Source: Candidatus Moranbacteria bacterium UBA4824
GTDB lineage: Bacteria; Patescibacteriota; Minisyncoccia; Moranbacterales; UBA2206
DNA: 38,216 nucleotides
NCBI GenBank assembly: GCA_002400405.1
Contig: DHFM01000052.1
Coordinates: 1 to 38,216, forward strand
Reading direction: 5' to 3'
The position numbers were made by a program, and so were the translations under genes. Positions 9,454 to 36,913 of this stretch are shown in pieces; positions within the stretch are counted from its first letter, which is position 1; each line of letters begins with the position of its first letter. The notes beneath the pieces were generated by a model. The model saw only the letters and a list, made by a program, of their open reading frames with translations. It had not been told where the DNA came from and did no database searches.

Positions 9454-10310
9454 GCTTTCCCCTCACTTCCAAAATATTTTATTTTTTGCTTAACTATTTC
9501 CTTGGCGGATTCCCTAGCTGCTTCCAGAATCTTTCTGACATCAAAATTAGTGCTTCCTCCTTTTAGGGAATTAATCAGACTACTAACAAACGCCACTCGA
9601 ATAGCAGTATCAACATTAAAACAAGATATGCCGTTTTTAATAGCTTCAACAACTTTCCCATTTTCCCAATCTGACGCGCCATGAAGAATGAGTGGGATAT
9701 TGCAAAGCTCATTTATTTTTTTCAATCTTTCAAAATCCGGTTCCGACCTTTCTTTGAGAAAGCCATGTGAATTGCCAATCGCTACTGCTAATGCATCCAC
9801 TCCAGTCTTTTCAATAAATTCAGCCGCTTTTTGCGGATCAGTCATAAAATCATCCCAATTAATTTCTCCGCCTTCTGTTTCACCAATATAGAGAACACTG
9901 CCCAATTCTCCTTGCACATCCACTCCTTTTTCATGACAATATTCCACTACTTTCTTAGTATTTCTTATATTATCTTCAAATTTTGCTCTTGATCCATCAT
10001 ACATCACCGAACCAAAACCAATTTCCGCACAACGCTGAGTAGCTTCAAAGCTCTTGCCATGATCTAAATGAATGCCCACGGGAATTTCCGGGGCATAAAA
10101 CTCCACATCATTTTTCACAATATTAAAAATCATTCGACCTCCGGCATATTCCATCGTCCTCTCTGTAATTTGGATAATCACTGGTGAACGCATTTCCTTG
10201 GCGGCATCCACAATTGCCCGCGTAGTTTCCAAATTAACTGTGTTAAATGCTCCAACCGCATATCCCCCTTCCCTAGCTTTAGTTAGAATTTCTTTAACGC
10301 TTACTATCAT
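9450..10310 (-). CDS. fba: class II fructose-bisphosphate aldolase
   Basis: Has YAVGAFN, HLDHG and a GNSHG-type motif. The ATG at 10310 (MIVSVKEIL) is preferred over the TTG at 10322, which lies inside repeat C2. Confidence 0.9.
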   Translation of the reverse strand: MIVSVKEILTKAREGGYAVGAFNTVNLETTRAIVDAAKEMRSPVIIQITERTMEYAGGRMIFNIVKNDVEFYAPEIPVGIHLDHGKSFEATQRCAEIGFGSVMYDGSRAKFEDNIRNTKKVVEYCHEKGVDVQGELGSVLYIGETEGGEINWDDFMTDPQKAAEFIEKTGVDALAVAIGNSHGFLKERSEPDFERLKKINELCNIPLILHGASDWENGKVVEAIKNGISCFNVDTAIRVAFVSSLINSLKGGSTNFDVRKILEAARESAKEIVKQKIKYFGSEGKA

Positions 10311-10422
10311 AATAATTTTCAATAACCAATTCTCAATTTACATTGAATTTTCATTTGTCAATTTTCATTGTAAATTTAGTCATTGAAAATTGATTGAAAA
10401 TTGTAAATTGAAAATTGAAAAT
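10311..10422. repeat. ATTGAAAA-type long hairpin element, copy C2 (fills the whole intercistronic spacer)
   Basis: Near-identical to C1. Bounded by the fba start and the tpiA stop. Confidence 0.7.
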
Positions 10423-11187
10423 TTATTTATCGTTTATTATTCCTGATATCTTTATGAATTCATACGGCACCAAACTTTCTCTACCAATCAACACACCATC
10501 CATTCCCGGATCCAAACAAGTTTGTTTAGCTGTCGAAGCTGAAACTGATCCACCATAAATTATTTTTACTTTTTCAGCATATTTAGTACCAAAAAGCCCA
10601 GTTAGAATTTTAAAAATCAAAACCCTAGCCTCCATCACTTCATTTGATTTAGGAATTTCATCCGTCCCCACTGACCAAATCGGCTCATAAGCAACAACTA
10701 AATTTTCTGCTTTTGCTCGACTGACTTTTTCCAAAGCTGATTTTACTTGCCGTGTAATAACGCTTAGTGTTTGATTATTTTCTTTTTCTGACTTAGACTC
10801 CCCCACGCAAAGGATTGGTTTCAAACCATTCTTGAGCGCTGAAATAACTTTCAAATTCACTTCTTCATCTCGCTCACAAAAATATCGCCTTCTTTCACTG
10901 TGTCCCAAAATCGCATAAGCACAGCCAAAATTCTTGAGCATTGATGGAGAAATTTCTCCGGTATAAGAACCTTTTTCTTCCCAAAACATATTTTGCGCCC
11001 CAAGAATTATTTTTTTTATCTTAGCTTTTTGGAATCCCGGTAAATGAATAGCTGGCGGACAAAGAATGAGCTCACAATTATTTATCTTTTTGCCAGTCAA
11101 TTCTTTTTTGAATAAATTCAAATATTGTTCTTGCTGGGCAGGAGACAAAATATTCATCTTTAAATTTCCTATAATTAGCTTGCTCAT
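10423..11187 (-). CDS. tpiA: triosephosphate isomerase
   Basis: 254 aa. Has GNLKMN, ILGHSERR, AYEPIWSVGT and YGGSV. Confidence 0.92.
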   Translation of the reverse strand: MSKLIIGNLKMNILSPAQQEQYLNLFKKELTGKKINNCELILCPPAIHLPGFQKAKIKKIILGAQNMFWEEKGSYTGEISPSMLKNFGCAYAILGHSERRRYFCERDEEVNLKVISALKNGLKPILCVGESKSEKENNQTLSVITRQVKSALEKVSRAKAENLVVAYEPIWSVGTDEIPKSNEVMEARVLIFKILTGLFGTKYAEKVKIIYGGSVSASTAKQTCLDPGMDGVLIGRESLVPYEFIKISGIINDK

Positions 11188-20438: not shown

Positions 20439-20474
20439 AGTTTATAGTTTGATGATTTTAAATTTATCTCTTTT

Positions 20475-20584
20475 CCTACGAATTACGAATCTGTACAAAT
20501 GTACTAATGTGAACTGAATAATTTTTACTGCTTTATTAAATTATTCGTAATTCGTACATTCGTAAATATTCGTAATTCGTAAGG
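20475..20584. repeat. 110-bp TACGAAT inverted-repeat element, copy A1
   Basis: cctacgaattacgaat...gtactaatgtgaa...attattcgtaattcgtacattcgta...attcgtaattcgtaagg. It ends 1 nt from the rpsZ stop codon. Confidence 0.8.
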
Positions 20585-22998: not shown

Positions 22999-23109
22999 CT
23001 TACGAATTACGAATTCTTACGAATGTACTAATGTGAGTTAAAAATAATTTTTGTATTTTATTAAATTATTCGTAATTCGTACATTCGTACTGATTCGTAA
23101 TTCGTAAGG
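22999..23109. repeat. 110-bp TACGAAT inverted-repeat element, copy A2
   Basis: Identical by eye over about 110 bp to 27357-27468. It ends 1 nt from the rpsC stop codon. Confidence 0.85.
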
Positions 23110-23755: not shown

Positions 23756-23790
23756 GCTAATTTAATTTTATATGCTTTAGTTAACTATTT

Positions 23791-23903
23791 CCTTACGAAT
23801 TACGAATTTTTACGAATGTACTAATGTGAATTGAATAATCTTTTGCTGTTTTATTAAATTATTCGTAATTCGTACATTCGTACCGATTCGTAATTCGTAA
23901 GAG
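23791..23903. repeat. 110-bp TACGAAT inverted-repeat element, copy A3
   Basis: ccttacgaattacgaatttttacgaatgtac...gtacattcgtaccgattcgtaattcgtaag. It ends about 4 nt from the rplV stop codon. Confidence 0.8.
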
Positions 23904-27142: not shown

Positions 27143-27356
27143 CTTTTTTTAAAAATAAAAACTGGTTTATTACCAGCCAAAACTCCTCGGGGAGTTTATA
27201 GAAATTTCTTTCTTGGCTAGTTGAGTATCTCGCCTGCCTAATTTTCCTATCTTATTATATATCCTCAACTGTTTGGGTCAGATAATCATTATTCTTAGTT
27301 GGGGAAAAATATAACAAAGTAAGAAAATTTGGCAGGTACAGACTTTAACTAGAATT

Positions 27357-27468
27357 CCTTACGAATTACGAATTCTTACGAATGTACTAATGTGAGTTAA
27401 AAATAATTTTTGTATTTTATTAAATTATTCGTAATTCGTACATTCGTACTGATTCGTAATTCGTAAGG
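27357..27468. repeat. 110-bp TACGAAT inverted-repeat element, copy A4
   Basis: Identical by eye to A2. It ends 2 nt from the rpsJ stop codon. Confidence 0.85.
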
Positions 27469-27470
27469 GG

Positions 27471-27880: not shown

Positions 27881-29074
27881 TTATTTTATAATTTTTGTTA
27901 CCACTCCGGCGCCAACAGTCTTTCCACCTTCTCGAATAGCAAATCGCATTCCTTCTTCCATAGCTACTGGAGCACCTAATTTAACTCCAAAACTCACTGT
28001 ATCTCCCGGCATAACCATTTCAGTTCCTTCTGGAAGAATCACTTCTCCTGTCACATCAGTTGTTCGAACATAGAATTGAGGTTTGTAGCCTTTGAAAAAT
28101 GGAGTGTGTCTTCCGCCTTCTTCCTTGTTTAGGATATACACTTCACCATCGAATTCAGTGTGTGGAGTAATTGATCCTGGTTTAGCCAAAACTTGACCTC
28201 GTTCCACATCTTCTTTTTTAGTTCCGCGAAGCAATACTCCGGCGTTGTCTCCCGCTTGTCCGCTATCAAGAGATTTGTTAAACATTTCAATTCCCGTAAC
28301 AATAGTTTTTTGTGTTGGTCTGATTCCCACAATTTCCACTTCGGTGTTAACATTGATTGTGCCTCTTTCAATTCTTCCTGTCACCACTGTTCCACGACCT
28401 TCAATTGAGAAAATGTCTTCAATCGGCATAAGAAAATCTTTTTCTGTTTCTCGCACAGGTTGTGGAATTTTTTCATCCAAAGCAGCCATAAGATCAATCA
28501 CTGGCTTAGCCGCTTCTTCTTCAGCTGATTTTGCTTCAAGTGCTTTTAGGGCTGATCCACGGATAACCTTAGCATTGTCTCCATCAAATTCATATTTTGT
28601 AAGCAGTTCACGAACTTCCGCCTCCACTAAATCAACCAATTCAGGGTCGTCCACCATATCAACTTTATTCAAAAATACCACAATTTCTGGAACACCCACT
28701 TGTTTTGCAAGAAGAATGTGTTCTCGAGTTTGTGGCATAGGGCCGTCAGTGGCAGCTACCACCAATATTGCACCGTCCATTTGAGCGGCACCTGTAATCA
28801 TGTTTTTGATATAGTCAGCATGTCCTGGGCAGTCAACATGAGCATAATGTCTTTTTTCTGATTCATATTCACAATGAGCAGTAGCAATGGTGATTCCACG
28901 TTCCTTTTCTTCCGGAGCTTTGTCAATTTCGTCAATTCCTTTTTCCTTAGCTTTTCCAAGGAAAGCCAGCACATGAAGAATAGCCGCTGTCAAAGTGGTT
29001 TTGCCATGGTCAACGTGGCCAATAGTTCCAACGTTAACATGAGGTTTAGTTCTTTCAAATTTTTCTGCTGCCAT
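27881..29074 (-). CDS. tuf: elongation factor Tu
   Basis: 397 aa. Has [18 protein letters not shown] and NKVD. Confidence 0.98.
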
Positions 29075-29180
29075 AGTTTTAATTTTGCCGTGACTTTTGC
29101 GCCCCCCGCTAGAGCGGAAAATTCCGGCTCAAACTCCGGATTCGCAATTAGTCGCGATTTTTTATTAAGTTATATTATTT

Positions 29181-29264
29181 ATCCCCCACCACTTTTTAGC
29201 TTTTTTCTAAATAAATTTACTTTATTTTAGCCCACCTAGCTTAAGTAAAAAAGTGGTGGGGGAT
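29181..29264. repeat. 84-bp element with a perfect 17-bp inverted repeat in the tuf upstream region
   Basis: atcccccaccacttttt (29181-29197) pairs with aaaaagtggtgggggat (29248-29264). Confidence 0.7.
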
Positions 29265-29336
29265 GAACAAAATTTAGTTTAATACACTTTTATTATTTTG
29301 GCAAGTCCCCCGCATAATTATTGTTGTGGATAAGAC

Positions 29337-29615
29337 CTACTGCGTCTTTTCATAGCGTATTTCCTCACTTTTCGTTTCGCTTATTTCGGAAAGATCCATA
29401 TCTTCAATTTTCTCTTCTTCTTGCATCACTTTCCAACTTGCTATATCATTGTTGATTTTATCAACCAATTCTTGTTTTGTCAAGCCTTCTATGCCTTCTT
29501 TCTTTATTTTCTTGAATTCCGCCAGACTTAGAATCACATAATACTGTTCTTGGTCTTTTATCACCGCTTTTCCTCCCAAGAGATCAAGCGCTTCTTTGAG
29601 TTTTTTATCCAACAT
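29337..29615 (-). CDS. small acidic protein, Phd/YefM-antitoxin-like N-terminus (tentative)
   Basis: 92 aa. GKAVIKDQEQYYVILSLAEFKKI resembles the Phd/YefM beta-strand core, and the C-terminus is an acidic tail. No toxin partner is adjacent. Confidence 0.4.
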   Translation of the reverse strand: MLDKKLKEALDLLGGKAVIKDQEQYYVILSLAEFKKIKKEGIEGLTKQELVDKINNDIASWKVMQEEEKIEDMDLSEISETKSEEIRYEKTQ

Positions 29616-29640
29616 AAACTTTGAATTATTTTATATTTTT

Positions 29641-29669
29641 ATGCTAACTTATTTGAAATTGGATGTCAA
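29641..29669 (-). promoter_or_regulatory. candidate promoter for ORF 29337-29615 (TTGACA-17-TAGCAT)
   Basis: On the minus strand, ttgaca (+29664-29669) is followed by a 17-nt spacer and tagcat (+29641-29646), about 25 nt upstream of the ATG. Confidence 0.4.
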
Positions 29670-29768
29670 TGGAAAATTTACATAAGTCTGGCAAAAATAA
29701 ACATTACACAAGCTGTTATGTAACATACTACTTACATTGATACTTACGCCTAAAATAAAATTGTTTTC

Positions 29769-30938
29769 TTATCGATTCCCCTTTGCTCTATTGTGCGTCT
29801 TACACAGCATTTCACAATTTTTTACTGAAGTTGCACCGCCTTTACTCCAAGCAGTTACATGGTCGGCGTCCATTTCATCTAGCTTCCAAATTTTGCTTTT
29901 GTTAGCATCGTGTCCAATAGCGCAATGTGAACAATTTGATTTGCCTTTTTTCTCGGCCTTGGCAGTTTGCACGGCGTAAACTGATTTTTTAGTTGCATCA
30001 TCGAAAATTCGAACCTCAAGTAATTTTGTGTTGATGGATCCACCAAGAATATATTCAAAAATACCTTTTCGATTTTTGATATACGGATCACCGTAAAGTT
30101 TTTTCACTTCTGCCGACACTTTGGCAGGATCATAAACTTTCTTGTGATACTGCTCATATAATCGACCCCACTCAAGGCCTTTCATTTCACTCTCAATATC
30201 AGTAAATACACTAGATACCCAATCAATCACACTATTAAAATAGGTTTTTAATTCAGTAATATTTTTATCATTGCGATGACTGCTCATATAATCACCAACA
30301 TTTCCACGACTGACCCAATTAAGCGCGCATTCTAAAAATTCTTGCCGATTGGCACTACCTGATACATACGTGCTCCATTTTTGAATATTGGCGTTTTGAC
30401 TATTGCTAAATTCTTCTTTACTAAGGGTTACGAACGGACCAGAATAAACCGCATTGAGAAGTTCTTGATTATTAAGTGGCACACCGGCAATGTTAATCGT
30501 CCGAAACCATTCCTTTATTTCACTTTCCGTGCCTTCGCATTCATAAATGAGAAGTTTAGTTTTCAAAATTTTATCTTGTTTATCTTTCGCGATACCGCTA
30601 AAATATTGCTCCATACCATTTTCATCTTTGATGGCAAATTTATCAGTCACAAACCGTCCAAGACTGGTGATTCTCTGTTGTCCGTCCAAAACTTCGAAAT
30701 TATCTTTACTAACTTTATTGAAATAAATCAAACCTATTGGATAACCTTTGAGGATCGATTCAATAACAGCTATTTCTCTTTTTCCACCATCGGAAGCATA
30801 AATATAGTTGCGTTGATATTCCGGTTGAATGGTTAATTTTCCAGACAAACCAAAAAGTCCTTTGCCTTCAAGCTCGTTATAGACAAATCCTTCACAAATA
30901 TCTTTGACAGTAATGTCGGTTTTTAAAATTGTTTTCAT
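29769..30938 (-). CDS. DUF262 (ParB-like/GmrSD N-terminal domain) plus C-terminal HNH nuclease fusion protein
   Basis: 389 aa. Has [21 protein letters not shown] and [19 protein letters not shown] (DUF262 motifs). The C-terminal CSHC...[12 protein letters not shown]...N...[11 protein letters not shown] is HNH. Confidence 0.85.
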
Positions 30939-30939
30939 A

Positions 30940-31953
30940 TTATTTTTTTGGTTTATTATTTTTAACTTTTTTCTCTAAAATTTTAATGCTTTCCAAATAA
31001 TCTTTTTCTACCAATGAAAAAGTTTTTGCCTGATATTTTTTATATTCATTTTCAGCCTTATCCATAGCCCTCTCATGACTCACACTTCCCGCATCCAGCA
31101 AGAGCTGTTCTCCCGTGGATGTAAGGATGCTATCAAGATGTTTCACCCAATCCAACATTTTCATGGGAATCTCACGCTCTGCCTGACGCTCGGCAAAATC
31201 AAGATACCCCGAAACGATTTGTCCGAGAGCACGCAATTCTTTTTCGTTGAGATAATTCTTGGCAATTTTTGCATCTTTAAGTTGTGGCGTTGAACTAGAA
31301 AATGTTGCAAGCCCCATAAAATCTTTTTTTGCGTCAGCACGATTATAAATAACTTCTGCGGCAGTTTGTCCGTGTACCGCGTAATGAACTTTATTTTGTA
31401 CTTTTTTAAAAAACTCTACTGATGTTTTTGTGTTTGCGTCATAATCAATACTGGTTGCATAGATATCTAAAATTTGGCGATAGAAAACTTTTTCACTGGC
31501 ACGAATGTCGCGAATACGAGTAAGAAGCTCTTTCCAATATCCACCACCTCCTAAATTTTTTAATCGCTCATCATCCATGACAAAACCTTTGATGATATAT
31601 TCTTTGAGCCGTGCTGTTGCCCATTGGCGAAATTTTGTACCTTGTACTGATTTCACACGATAACCGACAGAAATAATAACCTCTAGATTATAAAAATTGG
31701 TCGGTTTGGTAGAAAAATCGGAATTTCCGATTTTTCTCACAGATTTAGCTTCATTTAGCTCTTTTTCGACATAAATATTCAAAATATGCTCGTTAATCGT
31801 AGAACGGCTCTTGTTGAAAAGTTTTGATATTTGATCAATAGTAAGCCATACCGTCTCACCCTCAACACGCACTTCAATATTCGGCGCCCCATCCGCGCCT
31901 TCATAGATAATTATTTCACCGGAATTATGGTTATTTTTTATATTATTTTTCAT
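30940..31953 (-). CDS. RhuM-family protein (virulence protein RhuM-like)
   Basis: 337 aa. Has [72 protein letters not shown] and [21 protein letters not shown]. This matches the remembered RhuM consensus closely. Confidence 0.85.
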
Positions 31954-32551
31954 AGTTTATAATATCAGGCAAATCTTCTAATTTTTTGCCATTATATTCG
32001 AAATAACTAGCTCCTCGATATGATCCAGTTAATCTTCCTTTTTGTTCAAATATTTTATTAGTAAGCGGTGATAATTTCCAAACTTGCCCATCGTATTCAA
32101 CCTCTCGTTCTCCGCAAACTTTTGCGATTATACTTTTATCTTGAGTAAACGCAATTTCATCACCATTCCTTAATCCTTTTTTGTAAAAACTAAATAAGCC
32201 ACTTTTCTTTCTAATCTCCGAAACCTTATCAAATTCTTTTTCTTTATTTATGTTTTCTGGATAAATAATTTTTCCATCAAAAGAAAGAAGTAATTGCTTA
32301 ACTAATTCATAATCCAAAGCAAATAATTCGCTATCACCAACTCTATGCTTACTAAAAATTTCTTTCAAAAGATTTTCCTTGTCAGAATAATCATCAAGTT
32401 CAATAGCAAAAAATCTTTTTAATCCTGATACATTGGAATATCCATTTGCTTCTAAAAATCGCATTCTTTCAGAATAATTTTTAGTGCCAGTTTGACCGAT
32501 TTTTATCAATCCAGAAACTGCCGTTGTCATTATGTAGATAATTCCTTTCAT
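31943..32551 (-). CDS. T5orf172/MUG113-type GIY-YIG-like domain protein with an uncharacterised C-terminal domain
   Basis: 202 aa. Has GIIYIM...LIKIGQT...SERMRFL...SELFAL, covering the GIY-YIG-like Tyr, Arg and Glu positions. It starts 1 nt after the methyltransferase stop and overlaps the RhuM start by 11 nt. Confidence 0.7.
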   Translation of the reverse strand: MKGIIYIMTTAVSGLIKIGQTGTKNYSERMRFLEANGYSNVSGLKRFFAIELDDYSDKENLLKEIFSKHRVGDSELFALDYELVKQLLLSFDGKIIYPENINKEKEFDKVSEIRKKSGLFSFYKKGLRNGDEIAFTQDKSIIAKVCGEREVEYDGQVWKLSPLTNKIFEQKGRLTGSYRGASYFEYNGKKLEDLPDIINYEK

Positions 32552-32552
32552 A

Positions 32553-33650
32553 TTATTTTTTCTTATGTCTAATTAAAATCCTTTGATAAATTTTTCTGCT
32601 ATTTGAAATGGGATTATTGTAAACTTTGAAATTCCCAATCTTAAACTTATCAGGCACTTGTCCGTTTGCTGTACCACCAATAATTTCAAATTGCTCAGGA
32701 GAGTATTTATCAAGAAAACTCAATGGCACACCCATTACATCAAAATAATCGCTTGGTATAGAATCGGTAAATGGCACTTCTATCGCATTATAATTATCAT
32801 ATTTTTCATACAATTTTTTACCCTTAATTTCTTTGTGTTTGCTGTATTTTAAATTTTCTTCCATTGTCATAAGTGGTAATGGCTGATGACGACGACCATG
32901 ATCCAAATTAGTAAACCAACAACAATTTCTAAATTTCACTAAACCAGTTTCGGGCATATAGACCCCCTCTCCATATTCTTTAGCAAAAGGCGTTGAAAAA
33001 AAGGCATTACCAGCGTGAAAGCCGTTGCCAAGCCACATTTTATTCTCTTTTATCAATGGAAATGTCTCCTTATAAGTAATTGCGTTCATATTTCCGATAA
33101 TCACAAATTGTTTTCCATAATCAAAAAGTTGCTTCACATATTCGCGAAATAAACTAAACGGCGGATTGGTCACCACAATATCGGATTGTTTAAGTAAATC
33201 TACACATTCATCGCTACGAAAATCGCCATTGCCATTGAGAGGTTTAGCTATATTAGCATCATGTCTTAGCAACCATTCAATATCTGCCAACCCAATTGCG
33301 CCATCTAAGTTAAAATCCTTCACTTCATTAATTTCAATCCTAAATGGCTCCTTGCCTTCCGGTTTTAATCCTTCAATCTCAAATAAGGGTAATTGTCCTC
33401 CAGCAATTGGAGAAGGGATATAGCTGGTGGTGATCAGCTTTTTCAATCCAAGCTTGTTGAAATTGAGCACGAAATAGCGAAAGAAATTGCTCTCAAACGG
33501 ATCGTCGCAATTGCAATACACTACCTTCTTTCGGAACACATTTTTGTCATATTCCAAATACGCCTCAATCTCTTTTTGAATATCACCAAACTGGGTATAG
33601 AATTCATCATTCTTTGCTTTTTTTGCGTTTGTAAGGTTGCTGTTTGCCAT
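32553..33650 (-). CDS. N6-adenine DNA methyltransferase, EcoRI-methylase-like family
   Basis: 365 aa. Has NAKKAKNDEFYTQ..DI.KE, VVYCNCDDP.ESNFF.YF and the catalytic DIVVTNPPFSLFREY (NPPF). Confidence 0.85.
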   Translation of the reverse strand: MANSNLTNAKKAKNDEFYTQFGDIQKEIEAYLEYDKNVFRKKVVYCNCDDPFESNFFRYFVLNFNKLGLKKLITTSYIPSPIAGGQLPLFEIEGLKPEGKEPFRIEINEVKDFNLDGAIGLADIEWLLRHDANIAKPLNGNGDFRSDECVDLLKQSDIVVTNPPFSLFREYVKQLFDYGKQFVIIGNMNAITYKETFPLIKENKMWLGNGFHAGNAFFSTPFAKEYGEGVYMPETGLVKFRNCCWFTNLDHGRRHQPLPLMTMEENLKYSKHKEIKGKKLYEKYDNYNAIEVPFTDSIPSDYFDVMGVPLSFLDKYSPEQFEIIGGTANGQVPDKFKIGNFKVYNNPISNSRKIYQRILIRHKKK

Positions 33651-33785
33651 AAAACTACTTATTTAAATCATAACCTTGCTTGATTAAAAAAACTGATCCA
33701 AAATTTTTTCATATTCCCATACTACCACCATCCCCCCAACAATTCAAGCCACAAAAAAACTAACTTCAACCTATTTTTCACAATT

Positions 33786-34664
33786 TCATTTCAACTTTCT
33801 CGCAGATTTTCTCTTTTCTTTTTTCTTATTATCCACACCCTTAAGCATTTTTTTATTTTCTGATTTTATTCTTCTTTCAACCTTTTTCACATCTTCTTCG
33901 GCTGGCAATATTTCCGGATAAATTTCTTTTTCTGCAAGAAGATTGCGCACACTCCTATTATTTTTTACATGCTCGGAAGTAATGGATTGCTCTCCTTGTA
34001 TATGGGTGTCACGCTTTAGTGTAAAATTTGTAATCTCATTGGCGAAATCCTTGGCTTTGATGGTTATAGCTGGCAGAAAATCCGCCAACACTCGACTATC
34101 TTTGATTCCAAGTTTCTTTTTCATATCTTGCGTCGTATTCCCGCCGAAAAGAGCTTGATCGCCCCTACTTCTAATGCGTGCAAAACCCATACCGTCAACA
34201 CCTCTTTCATAAATAATTCCTGATAATTCTTTTTCTGAATTGGTAAGTTTTTCACGAAAAGTTAGCCTTTCTATTTCAGCTATTCTTTTTTCAATAAGTT
34301 CTTGCTTTCTTGTTTGGACAGCAAAATATGCCATCGCAAAAGCAATCTCTTCCTTCCTTGGATCGCCATTTTGTGCAATCAAATAACATGCGTGCCGAGT
34401 GAGTGCAATATCGTCGATTTCCCGAGATGCACCCTTGCCGGCAGTTATCATCTTTCCGACGTCGGCAAATTGATCATCCACTTTCAAACCACTGTTTTCA
34501 CAAGCTATTTTGGCCTTTTCTATAACTTTTTGAAAATTTTTCCACTGATCATATCCAAGTAAAACTTGCAAATCTCGAGCAAACCAAAACTCCGGACCAT
34601 CATCTGCTTTCTGTGTATAATCATTAAAATTTTTGTGAAGTTTTTGTATGATTTCATGTTTCAT
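33786..34664 (-). CDS. dinD: DNA-damage-inducible protein D (DinD)-like protein
   Basis: 292 aa. Has FWFARDLQ.LLGY..W.NF..VI.KAK.AC..SG, LTR.ACYLIAQNGDPRKEEIAFA..YFA.QTRKQE and a basic C-terminal tail. Confidence 0.75.
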   Translation of the reverse strand: MKHEIIQKLHKNFNDYTQKADDGPEFWFARDLQVLLGYDQWKNFQKVIEKAKIACENSGLKVDDQFADVGKMITAGKGASREIDDIALTRHACYLIAQNGDPRKEEIAFAMAYFAVQTRKQELIEKRIAEIERLTFREKLTNSEKELSGIIYERGVDGMGFARIRSRGDQALFGGNTTQDMKKKLGIKDSRVLADFLPAITIKAKDFANEITNFTLKRDTHIQGEQSITSEHVKNNRSVRNLLAEKEIYPEILPAEEDVKKVERRIKSENKKMLKGVDNKKKEKRKSARKLK

Positions 34665-34697
34665 ATATTTTTATTTTTTAATATTACTTATAATGAT

Positions 34698-34725
34698 ATT
34701 ATAACACTACATATTTTTTCGTCAA
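34698..34725 (-). promoter_or_regulatory. near-consensus promoter with extended -10 (TTGACG-16-TGtTATAAT) for the dinD-like gene
   Basis: On the minus strand, ttgacg (+34720-34725) is followed by a 16-nt spacer and tgt tataat (+34698-34706), about 35 nt upstream of the ATG at 34664. Confidence 0.65.
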
Positions 34726-34738
34726 ACCCTCCGCCCAC

Positions 34739-34766
34739 AAAAAAGACGAGGCAGTGCCTCGTCTCT
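34739..34766 (-). terminator. intrinsic terminator after fusA
   Basis: On the minus strand: agacgagg / loop cactg / cctcgtct, followed by tttttt. Confidence 0.8.
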
Positions 34767-34822: not shown

Positions 34823-36913
34823 CTATTTCTTATCCCCACCAATAATTCCTTCCGCCACATTCTTCGGCACTTCGGCGTAGTGGGAAAATTCCATCACATA
34901 GTTGGCGCGACCTTGAGTCATTGAGCGAAGTTGAGTAGCATAACCAAACATTGACGAAAGTGGAGCCTCGGCGTCGATTTCTTTTACTCGCGCGTTGCCT
35001 TCACCGCGATCATTCATTTCTTTGATGATTCCTCGTTTAGAGTTCAAATCCCCTACCACGTCACCCATAAAATTTTCTGGAGTCGTGACTACTACTTTCA
35101 TAATCGGTTCCATGATAATTGGATTAGCCCGACGAGAAGCTTCCTTGAAAGCCATTGAGCCGGCGATTCTAAAAGCCGCTTCAGAGGAGTCAACATCATG
35201 GAAAGATCCATCATACACAGTCGCCTTGATGTCAACCATTGGATACCCAGCCAAAACTCCGTTATCCATTGCTTCCTTGATTCCCTTGCCAATCGGTGCG
35301 ATATATTCTTGCGGAATAGCCCCACCTTTGATTTCATCCACAAATTCAAATCCTTTGCCAGCTTCTTGTGGTTCCACCTTAATCCAACAATGACCATATT
35401 GTCCACGTCCACCGGATTGTTTGATATATTTTCCTTCAGCTTGGGCATTGGATTTAATTGTTTCGCGATAAGCTACTTGCGGTTGTCCAATATTAGCTTC
35501 CACTTTGAATTCTCTTTTCATTCGATCCACGATAATATCAAGATGCAACTCACCCATGCCGGAAATGATAGTTTGACCAGTTTCTTCATCAGTTCTAATT
35601 TTGAAAGTTGGATCTTCTTCGGCTAATTTTCGCAGAGCCATTCCCATCTTTTCTTGATCGGCTTTGGTTTTTGGTTCTACGGCAATTGAGATAACTGGTT
35701 CTGGAAAAGTTATTTTTTCAAGCAATACTGGTTTTTCCGGATCGCAAAGCGTATCTCCCGTAGTAGTATTTTTCATTCCCACTAAGGCTCCAATCCCGCC
35801 AGTATAAATTTCATCCACTTCTTCTCGATGATTAGCGTGCATACGCAAAATTCTTCCCACTCTTTCTTTTTCTCCTTTGGAAGAATTCAATATATATGAA
35901 CCAGCCTTCAACACTCCGCTATAAACTCGGAAAAAAGTTAGTTGTCCCACAAATGGATCAGTCGCCACCTTGAAAGCCAAAGCAGAAAAAGGAGCATTGT
36001 CGTCATATTTAATGGCGACTTCTTTAGTTTCATCTTCTACTTCAGTAGCTTTAATTGCTGGAACGTCAACCGGTGAAGGTAGATAGTCTACAACTGCATC
36101 CAATACTAATTGCACGCCTTTGTTTCGAAGAGCTGTGCCTGTGAAAACTGGAATAAGAGTCACTTCATTGACACCTTTTCTAAGAGCAGTTTTCAATTCC
36201 ACTTCAGAAATTTCTTCTCCATTTAGAAATTTTTCTGTGAGTATATCATCCGTTTCAGAAATTTTTTCCACCATTTTTTCTCGCCATTCTTTGGATTTAT
36301 CCAACATATCCGCTGGAATTTCTCCTTCATTCACAATCTCTCCCATATCTCCAGAGAAAGTATAGGCTTTCATTTTGATCAAATCTACCACTCCTGAAAA
36401 ATCTCCTCGCTCTCCGATTGGAAGTTGTACTGCGATTGCATTAGGAGTAAGTCGATCCCAAATAGTTTTTAGGGCGTAATAGAAATCTGCGCCTTCTTTG
36501 TCGATCTTATTGATAAAACAAATTCTTGGTACTTTATATTTTTCTGCTTGTCTCCAAACTGTTTCAGATTGTGGTTCCACGCCTTCTTTTCCATCAAAAA
36601 CTACCACACCACCATCAAGAACTCGGAGTGATCGTTCCACTTCCACAGTAAAGTCAACGTGCCCAGGAGTATCGATAATATTAATTTGATGATCTTTCCA
36701 AAAACAAGTCGTCGCGGCGGAAGTAATGGTAATTCCACGTTCTTTTTCTTGTTCCATCCAGTCCATTGTCGCAGCGCCTTCATGCACTTCACCAATTTTG
36801 TGAGTGATGCCGGTATAAAACAAAACACGCTCAGTGGTGGTGGTTTTTCCAGCATCAATATGAGCGATAATTCCGATATTGCGATATTTTTCGATTGGGT
36901 ATTGTCTGGCCAT
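34823..36913 (-). CDS. fusA: elongation factor G
   Basis: 696 aa. Has [26 protein letters not shown] and NKIDK. Confidence 0.98.

Follow-up and report, generated by a model that had tools for sequence, protein, structure and literature searches.

Hot spots of horizontal gene transfer (HGT) and of defence genes, flanked by core genes, occur in the pangenomes of Escherichia coli and Pseudomonas, where one pair of core genes brackets varied sets of accessory or defence genes and a dedicated integrase is not needed. Bacteria of the Candidate Phyla Radiation (CPR, Patescibacteria) have tiny genomes, mostly without CRISPR, and it is for this reason that their acquisition and exchange of defence genes are of interest. 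Here, a locus of this kind is described in a contig of Candidatus Moraniibacteriota (Parcubacteria, CPR; DHFM01000052.1, 38,216 nt, the whole of which was analysed and is called the window), in which a DinD gene and a restriction-modification (R-M) cassette with two further genes embedded in it lie between fusA, encoding elongation factor G (EF-G), and tuf, encoding elongation factor Tu (EF-Tu). We hold with fairly high confidence that these genes are a horizontally acquired, two-module defence cargo, lodged in a hot spot between the fusA terminator and a small open reading frame (ORF) upstream of tuf, and exchanged via the conserved flanks. The locus is a fresh example of two known patterns, the core-gene-flanked hot spot and the presence of defence genes inside an R-M operon, and carries both into a lineage and a genomic position that are new for them, without overturning current ideas.

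With regard to the second pattern, the classic case of a back-up effector inside an R-M locus is PrrC in EcoprrI (PMC12707154). Among Type I R-M systems, a locus with dinD, RhuM and GIY-YIG sequences between core genes is on record (PMC9881135), and RhuM-like proteins have been proposed as toxins working with R-M systems (PMC3710099). As in these described loci, the DinD, RhuM, GIY-YIG and Fic families are met within or beside the operon (PMC3710099, PMC9881135, PMC12707154). Unlike the Type I loci, the host operon is here a two-gene cassette, a methyltransferase gene (M) followed by a nuclease gene (R), whose TAA-T-ATG coupling junction is kept exactly on both sides of the embedded genes. The combination of the five genes is thus a familiar one, while their host operon is new; as has been put forward for these families inside Type I R-M loci, DinD, T5orf172 and RhuM would be R-M-linked auxiliary or back-up defence factors of the toxin type.

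Two further described groups are relevant to the cassette itself. With Type II R-M systems it shares separate, adjacent and co-oriented M and R genes, M being first, translational coupling, an N6-adenine methyltransferase with the NPPF motif, a nuclease with an intact HNH motif, and copies on plasmids and phage, while it departs from the usual Type II arrangement in the N-terminal DUF262/ParB-like domain of R, of the nucleoside triphosphatase type, in an R more conserved than M, and in the up to three genes placed between M and R. With GmrSD, BrxU and SspE (DUF262 + DUF1524), R shares an N-terminal DUF262 domain with the DGQQR motif and a C-terminal nuclease of the His-Me type, but it ends in a PF01844 HNH domain, has 389 aa and is almost always coupled to a methyltransferase.

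The junction between fusA and the small ORF

The minus strand of the window carries, in this order, rpsL, rpsG, fusA, six ORFs, tuf, rpsJ, rplC and the S10/spc genes. A first-pass annotation, made from the sequence alone, had placed six co-oriented ORFs between an rpsL-rpsG-fusA flank and a tuf-rpsJ-rplC flank, and had named five gene families among them (DinD, EcoRI-like methyltransferase, T5orf172, RhuM and DUF262-HNH). All six ORFs are present on that strand at the positions given, both flanks were recovered as named, and profile matches bear out the five families (Table 1). Three of its points are corrected here: the cargo comprises five genes, not six, the operon break was pre-existing, and the composition is host-like. 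The EF-G of the window shares 85-86% aa identity with that of five Moraniibacteriota/Parcubacteria metagenome-assembled genomes (MAGs) and 62-70% with those of other Patescibacteria and other phyla. At the nucleotide level, fusA is 88-89% identical to L211, L215 and L216 (loci fetched for comparison are given L numbers) up to the stop codon, and tuf reaches 90-92% aa and 87-92% nt identity with its closest relatives.

The closer relatives, L211, L212, L214, L215 and L216, were found through the small 92-aa ORF (small92), at 93-97% identity. In these comparisons the str-S10-spc cluster is otherwise collinear, with 85-94% nt identity, and the fusA-small92 junction is its sole multi-kb break. L003 represents the empty site, where fusA is followed by 193 nt (terminator and promoter), small92 and tuf, and the small ORF also comes directly after fusA in L007, L010, L013 and L026. 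Eight other related lineages hold eight distinct gene sets between fusA and the small ORF: a GT2 protein and a large membrane protein (L001); three ORFs without assigned family (L002); Bro-N, NUDIX and an HI0933-like flavoprotein (L004); DUF2238, a DinD fragment, Bro-N, Fic, two methyltransferases and a DpnI-family protein, with no tuf within 10 kb (L008); a DinD equivalog, 38% identical to that of the window, with M24 peptidase fragments (L211, L212 and L214); DUF6922, AbiEii and a gene like those of the tyrosine transposases associated with repetitive extragenic palindromes (REP; RAYT for the transposases) (L215); a DUF4116 repeat protein and a RAYT-like gene (L216); and 1.5-1.6 kb of ORFs without assigned family (L018 and L022). 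Homology of the left flank reaches 34676 in L211, 34740 in L215 and 34823 in L216, that of the right flank starts at 29685, and the horizontally acquired cargo would accordingly be delimited as 29686-34675 (at most to 34822) of the window, within a lineage-specific hot spot.

With the same flanks, varied content and an empty site, the fusA-small92 junction is a core-gene-flanked HGT hot spot, which, like those of E. coli and Pseudomonas, has a genome with the empty site. Unlike them, its flanks are fusA and small-ORF/tuf, in the str cluster of a CPR bacterium, and its cargo is small (2-5 kb, reaching at least 10 kb in L008). The fusA-tuf interval had been proposed to be accessory, largely defence-type and horizontally mobile, which is supported by the empty L003 junction and by the differing content in relatives. 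The accompanying expectation that relatives would show an empty fusA-tuf junction held for L003, whereas eight lineages carry other content instead. The insertion had also been considered unusual for this place, which was an overstatement: among 80 related fusA loci fetched, 50 have tuf downstream, and in 11 of these 50 the gap exceeds 1 kb. In Patescibacteria the fusA-tuf junction is thus frequently widened, and some of the genes inserted there are pilin-like and not of the defence type. A full-text literature search revealed no paper on a hot spot at this junction.

The sixth ORF, formerly counted as cargo, sits upstream of tuf with or without cargo. In fact, small92 immediately precedes tuf in all close relatives, the empty-site L003 among them, with an identity of 64-80% in L001-L004 and weaker, more distant matches in L007, L010, L013, L018, L022 and L026 (all by tblastn). 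It is, therefore, a conserved resident gene, leaving five cargo genes.

The regulatory signals of the junction are resident as well. The clean intrinsic terminator reported after fusA was borne out by the fold energy of its hairpin (-21.5 kcal/mol, z -4.3) and by the U-run directly after it, and the consensus terminator scan that missed it had probably absorbed the T-run by greedy stem extension. The promoter-like site upstream of the DinD slot is the top match within the 10 kb scanned, over the whole of which 36 such sites were found as against 31 expected from shuffled sequence, that is, no excess. It had been described as the island's own near-consensus promoter; the site itself stands, matching 11 of 12 positions, but its ownership does not, being resident and found in L211 and L212 too. 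In these two loci, terminator and promoter share 87% identity with those of the window and lie ahead of another DinD allele (38% aa identity), and both are resident sequences which were not imported with the R-M cargo. On the right border, the -35 TTGACA of the small-ORF promoter is unchanged in five genomes, one of them with the empty site, and the -10 box is conserved too.

In each relative, the empty-site one included, a terminator of its own follows fusA and a conserved TTGACA promoter precedes the small ORF, so that fusA and tuf already formed two transcription units. The island, therefore, did not split the str operon, as had been claimed, but fills an insulated gap, and this pre-existing separation probably explains the tolerance of insertions at the site. 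A position between a terminator and the next promoter would accept inserted DNA without polar effect, and flanks that are among the most conserved sequences of the genome would provide long homology arms for swapping the content. The most economical route would thus be homologous recombination via the conserved fusA and small-ORF/tuf flanks, in line with the prominence of tuf, rpsL and other translation genes among the transfers inferred in Patescibacteria (PMC12455944). As a well-delimited and easily recognised landing site, whose ultra-conserved flanks suit the polymerase chain reaction and read recruitment, the fusA-small92 junction could serve to track the turnover of defence genes in populations of uncultivated Moranbacteria.

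Table 1. Genes, signals and repeats of the fusA-tuf locus (window coordinates unless another locus is named; GA, gathering score; E, expectation value)
Feature	Position	Strand	Basis or remark
fusA (EF-G)	34823-36913	minus	left conserved flank; ORF
fusA intrinsic terminator	34739-34766	minus	REP-like palindrome copy, cGTAGAGACGAGGCACTGCCTCGTCT(CTAC)
Promoter-like site upstream of DinD slot	34698-34725	minus	TTGACG-16-TATAAT, 11/12, extended -10 TG
DinD (Bro-N domain)	33786-34664	minus	polymorphic first slot; NF008573, Pfam Bro-N, PADLOC PDC-S13
M, EcoRI-family N6-adenine DNA methyltransferase	32553-33650	minus	PF13651 EcoRI_methylase, E 3e-126, full length
Junction repeat, M stop/T5orf172 start	32540-32561		copy of M/R junction
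T5orf172 (GIY-YIG-like)	31943-32551	minus	PF10544, 27.3 bits vs GA 20; PADLOC PDC-S57, E 3e-55
RhuM-family protein	30940-31953	minus	PF13310, E 1e-104; PADLOC PDC-S05, E 1e-159
Junction repeat, RhuM stop/R start	30927-30948		copy of M/R junction
R, DUF262(GmrSD_N)-HNH nuclease, putative restriction enzyme	29769-30938	minus	PF03235 + PF01844
Genome-specific spacer, cassette end to resident promoter	29686-29768		no homology in relatives or other cassette loci
Small-ORF promoter, right border of variable region	29641-29669	minus	TTGACA-17-TAGCAT, 10/12
small92, 92-aa ORF, resident gene	29337-29615	minus	tblastn; flank identity 90-92% nt
Window-specific 91-nt hairpin insertion, small92-tuf spacer	29176-29266	minus	clean alignment gap vs L211/L215/L216
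tuf (EF-Tu)	27881-29074	minus	right conserved flank; ORF
tuf-upstream small ORFs	window 29337-29615; L015:13414-13707; L016:5729-6010; L023:12750-13124; L054:2642-3235		Phd/YefM-like N-terminal pattern

The two modules and the genes embedded between M and R

The first module of the cargo would be the DinD (Bro-N) gene, placed under the resident promoter. Its product matches the NCBIfam equivalog NF008573 with 352.7 bits (cut-off 242), its nearest alleles (90-92%) are found at other loci in other Moraniibacteriota, and the same slot holds the 38%-identical DinD in L211, DUF6922+AbiEii in L215 and the DUF4116 protein in L216. A possible degenerate terminator unit after DinD (33740-33765), for which the alignment was suggestive only, is not relied on here. 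In the MAG GCA_049303905.1 (L083), the closest DinD allele adjoins a diversity-generating retroelement (L218).

The second module would be a mobile R-M cassette, M and then R, with T5orf172 and RhuM seamlessly between them. M is of the gamma class, with the NPPF motif in its translation (IVVTNPPFSLF), and a sequence search of the PDB gave no usable match for it. R combines an N-terminal PF03235 domain (E 3.7e-21, residues 36-165), bearing the DGQQR motif, with a C-terminal PF01844 HNH domain (E 3e-6, residues 336-389; also PF14279) whose D-H...N...H-N residues are invariant in 26 homologues, and no match to DUF1524 was found in it. The top PADLOC model is REase_II (PDLC03418, E 1e-85, full length), followed by weaker matches to NsnA, PD-T4-2_A and HEC-05/06.

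At least 8000 homologues of R were found, and the 120 best show 85-97% identity and belong to many CPR classes, Omnitrophota and Actinobacteria; at 85-89% aa identity, Kazan-, Pace-, Levy-, Wolfe- and Nealsonbacteria, Omnitrophota and Actinobacteria are represented, and across these same distances R is far more conserved than EF-G (63-70%). R and RhuM share 93% nt identity with L086, in which the cassette is located between pyruvate kinase and acetyltransferase genes, and R shares 88-90% with L083-L085, which are also other loci. As for fusA, including its 3' end, nt identity is 84-93% with the closest relatives and much lower with the lineages of L083-L086. M is 78-82% identical in nt to the cassette relatives (78% to L086) as against 93% for RhuM and R, so that the cassette is a mosaic, and it can be delimited, since homology to other loci ends at 33664 (L084) and at 29753-29768. 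Furthermore, the annotations of Moraxella, Enterococcus and Arthrobacter plasmids and of a Flavobacterium phage include the M+R pair. No paper on an M.EcoRI-like and DUF262-HNH pair was found in a literature search, and the locus highlights a very widespread, uncharacterised R-M family, in which an EcoRI-family methyltransferase accompanies an unusually conserved DUF262-HNH nuclease.

The arrangement of M and R was compared in the window and in 110 loci of many phyla, plasmids and a phage, which had been drawn from metagenomes, viral contigs and look-ups of exact proteins. Of about 120 loci, 110 have M upstream of R, and in 91 of the 110 it abuts R in the same orientation, with a gap of -23 to +14 nt, the typical junction being ...AAAAAATAA-T-ATGAAAACA... 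or an ATGA overlap. The remaining 19 loci, to which the present one belongs, have gaps of 0.07-2.5 kb, with embedded genes in 16 of them. Such genes start at the TAATATG position and end in ...AATAAT-ATG; RhuM is the commonest, and T5orf172-like proteins, AAA_15/21 ATPases, SoFic, a trypsin-like protein (PDC-S45), DUF2130 and ORFs without family were also found elsewhere. In the window, T5orf172 starts 1 nt past the M stop, which is the TAATATG position held by R in unembedded cassettes. The 22-nt repeats at the two ends of the embedded pair match at 20 of 22 positions, 14 nt of them exact, and their sequence is the canonical M-stop/R-start junction of the 91 loci. RhuM, T5orf172, SoFic and other candidate defence genes use the M-R junction as their slot, which offers a natural experiment on accessory roles. 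R itself is bracketed by a 17-nt direct repeat (16/17), at 30924-30940 in the region of the start codon and at 29756-29772 just past the stop, which may be due to chance in AT-rich DNA or be a footprint of movement of the nuclease gene.

In the 4950 pairwise comparisons among 100 M+R pairs (L087-L207), R was more conserved than M in 97%, with median identities of about 80% for R and about 55-65% for M. This is the reverse of the usual R-M pattern.

Function and origin of the cargo

In the proposed mechanism, M would mark the host DNA and R would cut unmarked incoming DNA. The tightness of the M-then-R coupling argues for such a classical 'methylate self, cut non-self' system and, since R is nearly always coupled to a methyltransferase, cutting would be sensitive to methylation rather than dependent on it. 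Among the 4-mers of the window, depletion is strongest for ACGT (14 observed, 40.9 expected), followed by GGCC (34 against 69.6). The median observed-to-expected ratio of ACGT is 0.64 in cassette-bearing loci and 0.88 in controls (p 4e-6), and that of the same genes in close relatives is 0.65-0.89. These values suggest a long-standing exposure to ACGT-specific restriction, possibly by the island system, and are to be taken only as a lead to the recognition site.

Several observations weigh against a horizontally acquired R-M cargo. GC (0.352 vs 0.378), GC at third codon positions, codon usage and 4-mers are all host-like, no integrase or recombinase family was found among the six proteins by profile searches, ARAGORN detected no tRNA or transfer-messenger RNA genes in the window, and no convincing att-type direct repeat spans the borders, where matches are short, AT-rich and of the chance type apart from the M/R-junction and 17-nt repeats. 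The signs of a classical integrative genomic island (integrase, tRNA/att, atypical composition) are, then, absent. In addition, exact-protein look-ups gave no empty-site variant of the same population, all three of the available assemblies carrying the island, and, given the DinD at the same position in L211, some of the 'island' could be a resident slot of long standing. As for the nuclease, DUF262 is best known from modification-dependent Type IV enzymes, R occurs without nearby M in L083, where it is apparently intact, and without upstream M in L109 and L184, a sequence search revealed no relative of R in the PDB, and its AlphaFold2 model, built on a shallow alignment (85-97% identity), reached a mean confidence (pLDDT) of 46.8. 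Regarding composition, the codon Jensen-Shannon distance is 0.018, below the value between ribosomal and other genes, and the 4-mer correlation is 0.967; the GC and codon-usage profile of 29.3-34.8 kb against the flanks, which had been proposed as a check, shows no anomaly and has no discriminating power here. A host-like composition fits donors among other low-GC CPR bacteria and is neutral as evidence. No Rfam family reached its gathering score in the whole window.

A first alternative concerns the advantage which maintains the cassette. M and the DUF262-HNH nuclease could be an addictive, self-propagating pair, lodged by essential genes and kept by post-segregational killing, in which case defence would be a side effect and the accessory genes hitch-hikers. 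The promiscuity of the cassette agrees with this, given the thousands of close R homologues, a host GC of 0.31-0.60 and the plasmid and phage copies, and the same can be said of the stronger conservation of R and of the mosaic with respect to L086 (M 78%, R 93%); R-M systems are, moreover, cited as acting as mobile selfish units (Kobayashi 2001, cited in PMC4619093). Nevertheless, a selfish element is compatible with a defence role rather than exclusive of it, and the embedded genes come from families recurrent in defence loci, so that as an explanation in its own right it is considered rather unlikely.

The way in which the cargo moves may also be more elaborate than recombination between flanks. 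The palindrome of the fusA terminator, headed by GTAG (GTAGAGACGAGGCAnTGCCTCGTCTCTAC), has one copy in the 38-kb window and 2-4 copies in each of L211, L215 and L216, all of them inside the hot spot, and the AbiE module of L215 has a 48-nt repeat (47/48 identical) on either side. The Y1 transposase-like proteins of L215 and L216 match NF047646 (REP-associated tyrosine transposase) with E 1e-15 to 5e-17 and 57-62 bits against a cut-off of 80, and Pfam Y1_Tnp with 23-28 bits (GA 23). As in REP/RAYT systems, a GC-rich palindrome preceded by GTAG is repeated in the sister hot spots, and putative Y1-transposase genes whose best match is NF047646 share the hot spot in L215 and L216; unlike in those systems, the palindrome has a single copy in the 38-kb window, which holds no RAYT gene, and the NCBIfam scores fall under the curated cut-off. 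The REP-like palindrome and the RAYT-like transposases would thus offer a second, hypothetical route for the cargo. Taken further, there could be two nested slots with a common and not yet described logic of seamless cassette capture: modules bounded by palindromes and moved by RAYT, forming a hairpin-delimited gene-cassette array in a CPR str cluster, and the M/R junction, where defence genes enter and leave with TAA-T-ATG regenerated on both sides. This combined scheme is speculative and appears doubtful. If it is true that palindrome and RAYT mobilise whole genes, they would constitute a new gene-capture mechanism.

According to a further alternative, R would be a modification-dependent (Type IV, GmrSD/BrxU-like) or methylation-independent nuclease, and the adjacent M a separate function, such as an orphan or anti-restriction methylase. 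The N-terminal domain is indeed PF03235 GmrSD_N, the characterised DUF262 enzymes are Type IV (PMC12707154), and both the weaker PADLOC matches and the copies of R standing without M in L083, L109 and L184 go in the same direction. However, M is upstream of and translationally coupled to R in 91 of the 110 loci and is kept in all 19 with a wide gap, the C-terminus is a classical HNH domain (PF01844) and not DUF1524, and the best PADLOC model, over the full length, is that of a Type II restriction enzyme (REase_II); this alternative is consequently judged improbable. In the locus L083 (positions 9738-11170; GCA_049303905.1), the apparently intact R, 95% identical to that of the window, lies near a DDE transposase and is preceded by two RhuM fragments only, methyltransferase being absent within 10 kb. 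Such an orphan R is hard to reconcile with the classical R-M model.

Regarding the origin of the genes, all five could be ancestral between fusA and tuf and have been lost or replaced in the relatives. Such differential loss would accommodate the host-like composition, the DinD equivalog found after fusA behind the same upstream promoter in L211, L212 and L214, and the Bro-N proteins after fusA in L004 and L008. Against it, the small ORF and tuf come right after fusA in more distant Parcubacteria, copies at unrelated loci of other lineages match R and RhuM with 88-93% nt identity, and the DinD alleles sharing the position are 38% identical while the closest ones (90-92%) are elsewhere in other genomes. 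Differential loss is, thus, very unlikely as a whole, and for the R-M cassette it is largely refuted. Finally, an assembly chimera at the fusA/DinD or nuclease/small-ORF junction, a fear raised by the metagenomic nature of the contig and by the repeated palindrome at the left junction, and which the first-pass annotation had named as refuting its proposal, is scarcely credible, being excluded by three assemblies from different runs (ERZ27315071, ERZ27315072 and SRR5324142) with 100% identity across the island junctions, L082 spanning 34230 to 29000 and L209 30144 to 29021, and by the same neighbours in a second contig of 20-50 kb.

The small ORF, the tuf leader and the rest of the cluster

As regards the resident small92, 308 homologues were found, the named ones being all hypothetical proteins from Moranbacteria/Parcubacteria. 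It had been called Phd-like, a label for which a direct family match is lacking (no Pfam or NCBIfam family even at E<=5), although a transitive link exists: the family profile of small92 aligns with the positionally equivalent 97-aa ORF of L015 (hhalign, E 2e-5), which in turn matches PF02604 (Phd/YefM) at E 9e-6, under the gathering score. The label may, accordingly, be correct for the fold, as far as these profiles go. The small92 profile gave no usable match in the PDB, Foldseek with its AlphaFold2 model (pLDDT 60.8) found nothing in the PDB below E 0.7, and no toxin gene adjoins it, the next gene being tuf in all relatives. A small ORF with a Phd/YefM-like N-terminal pattern and without toxin gene is apparently conserved upstream of tuf in several Patescibacteria lineages (Table 1), and could be a regulator of tuf.

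The 91-nt insertion between small92 and tuf folds into a hairpin with a 17-bp GC-rich stem (CCCCCACCACUUUUU..., -37.5 kcal/mol, z -6.2). Its location just downstream of a conserved promoter-like site, TTGCCA-17-TAAACT (29304-29276), makes it a probable component of the tuf leader. No second copy of it was found in the window, in the fetched loci or in IMG/VR.

The 5' side of the str cluster is a second insertion site in the sister genomes (L211:3412-4293; L215:1-3029; L216:2141-3734). One of them has an extra ORF of 277-293 aa between rpsG and fusA, and in others the stretch just before rpsL carries RhuM/Fic, MazE, LexA-DNA methylase, RadC and Phd-domain genes.

On the other side of tuf, an element of about 115 nt, resembling a miniature inverted-repeat transposable element, is present in four copies (~27350-27470, 23781-23901, 22999-23109 and 20473-20584); its ends are inverted repeats (CCTTACGAATTACGAAT ... 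ATTCGTAATTCGTAAGG), and TACGAAT repeats occur inside it. The copies lie in intergenic spacers of the S10/spc ribosomal-protein operons, and one of them, in the rpsJ-rplC spacer, is common to L211, where it is 99% identical.

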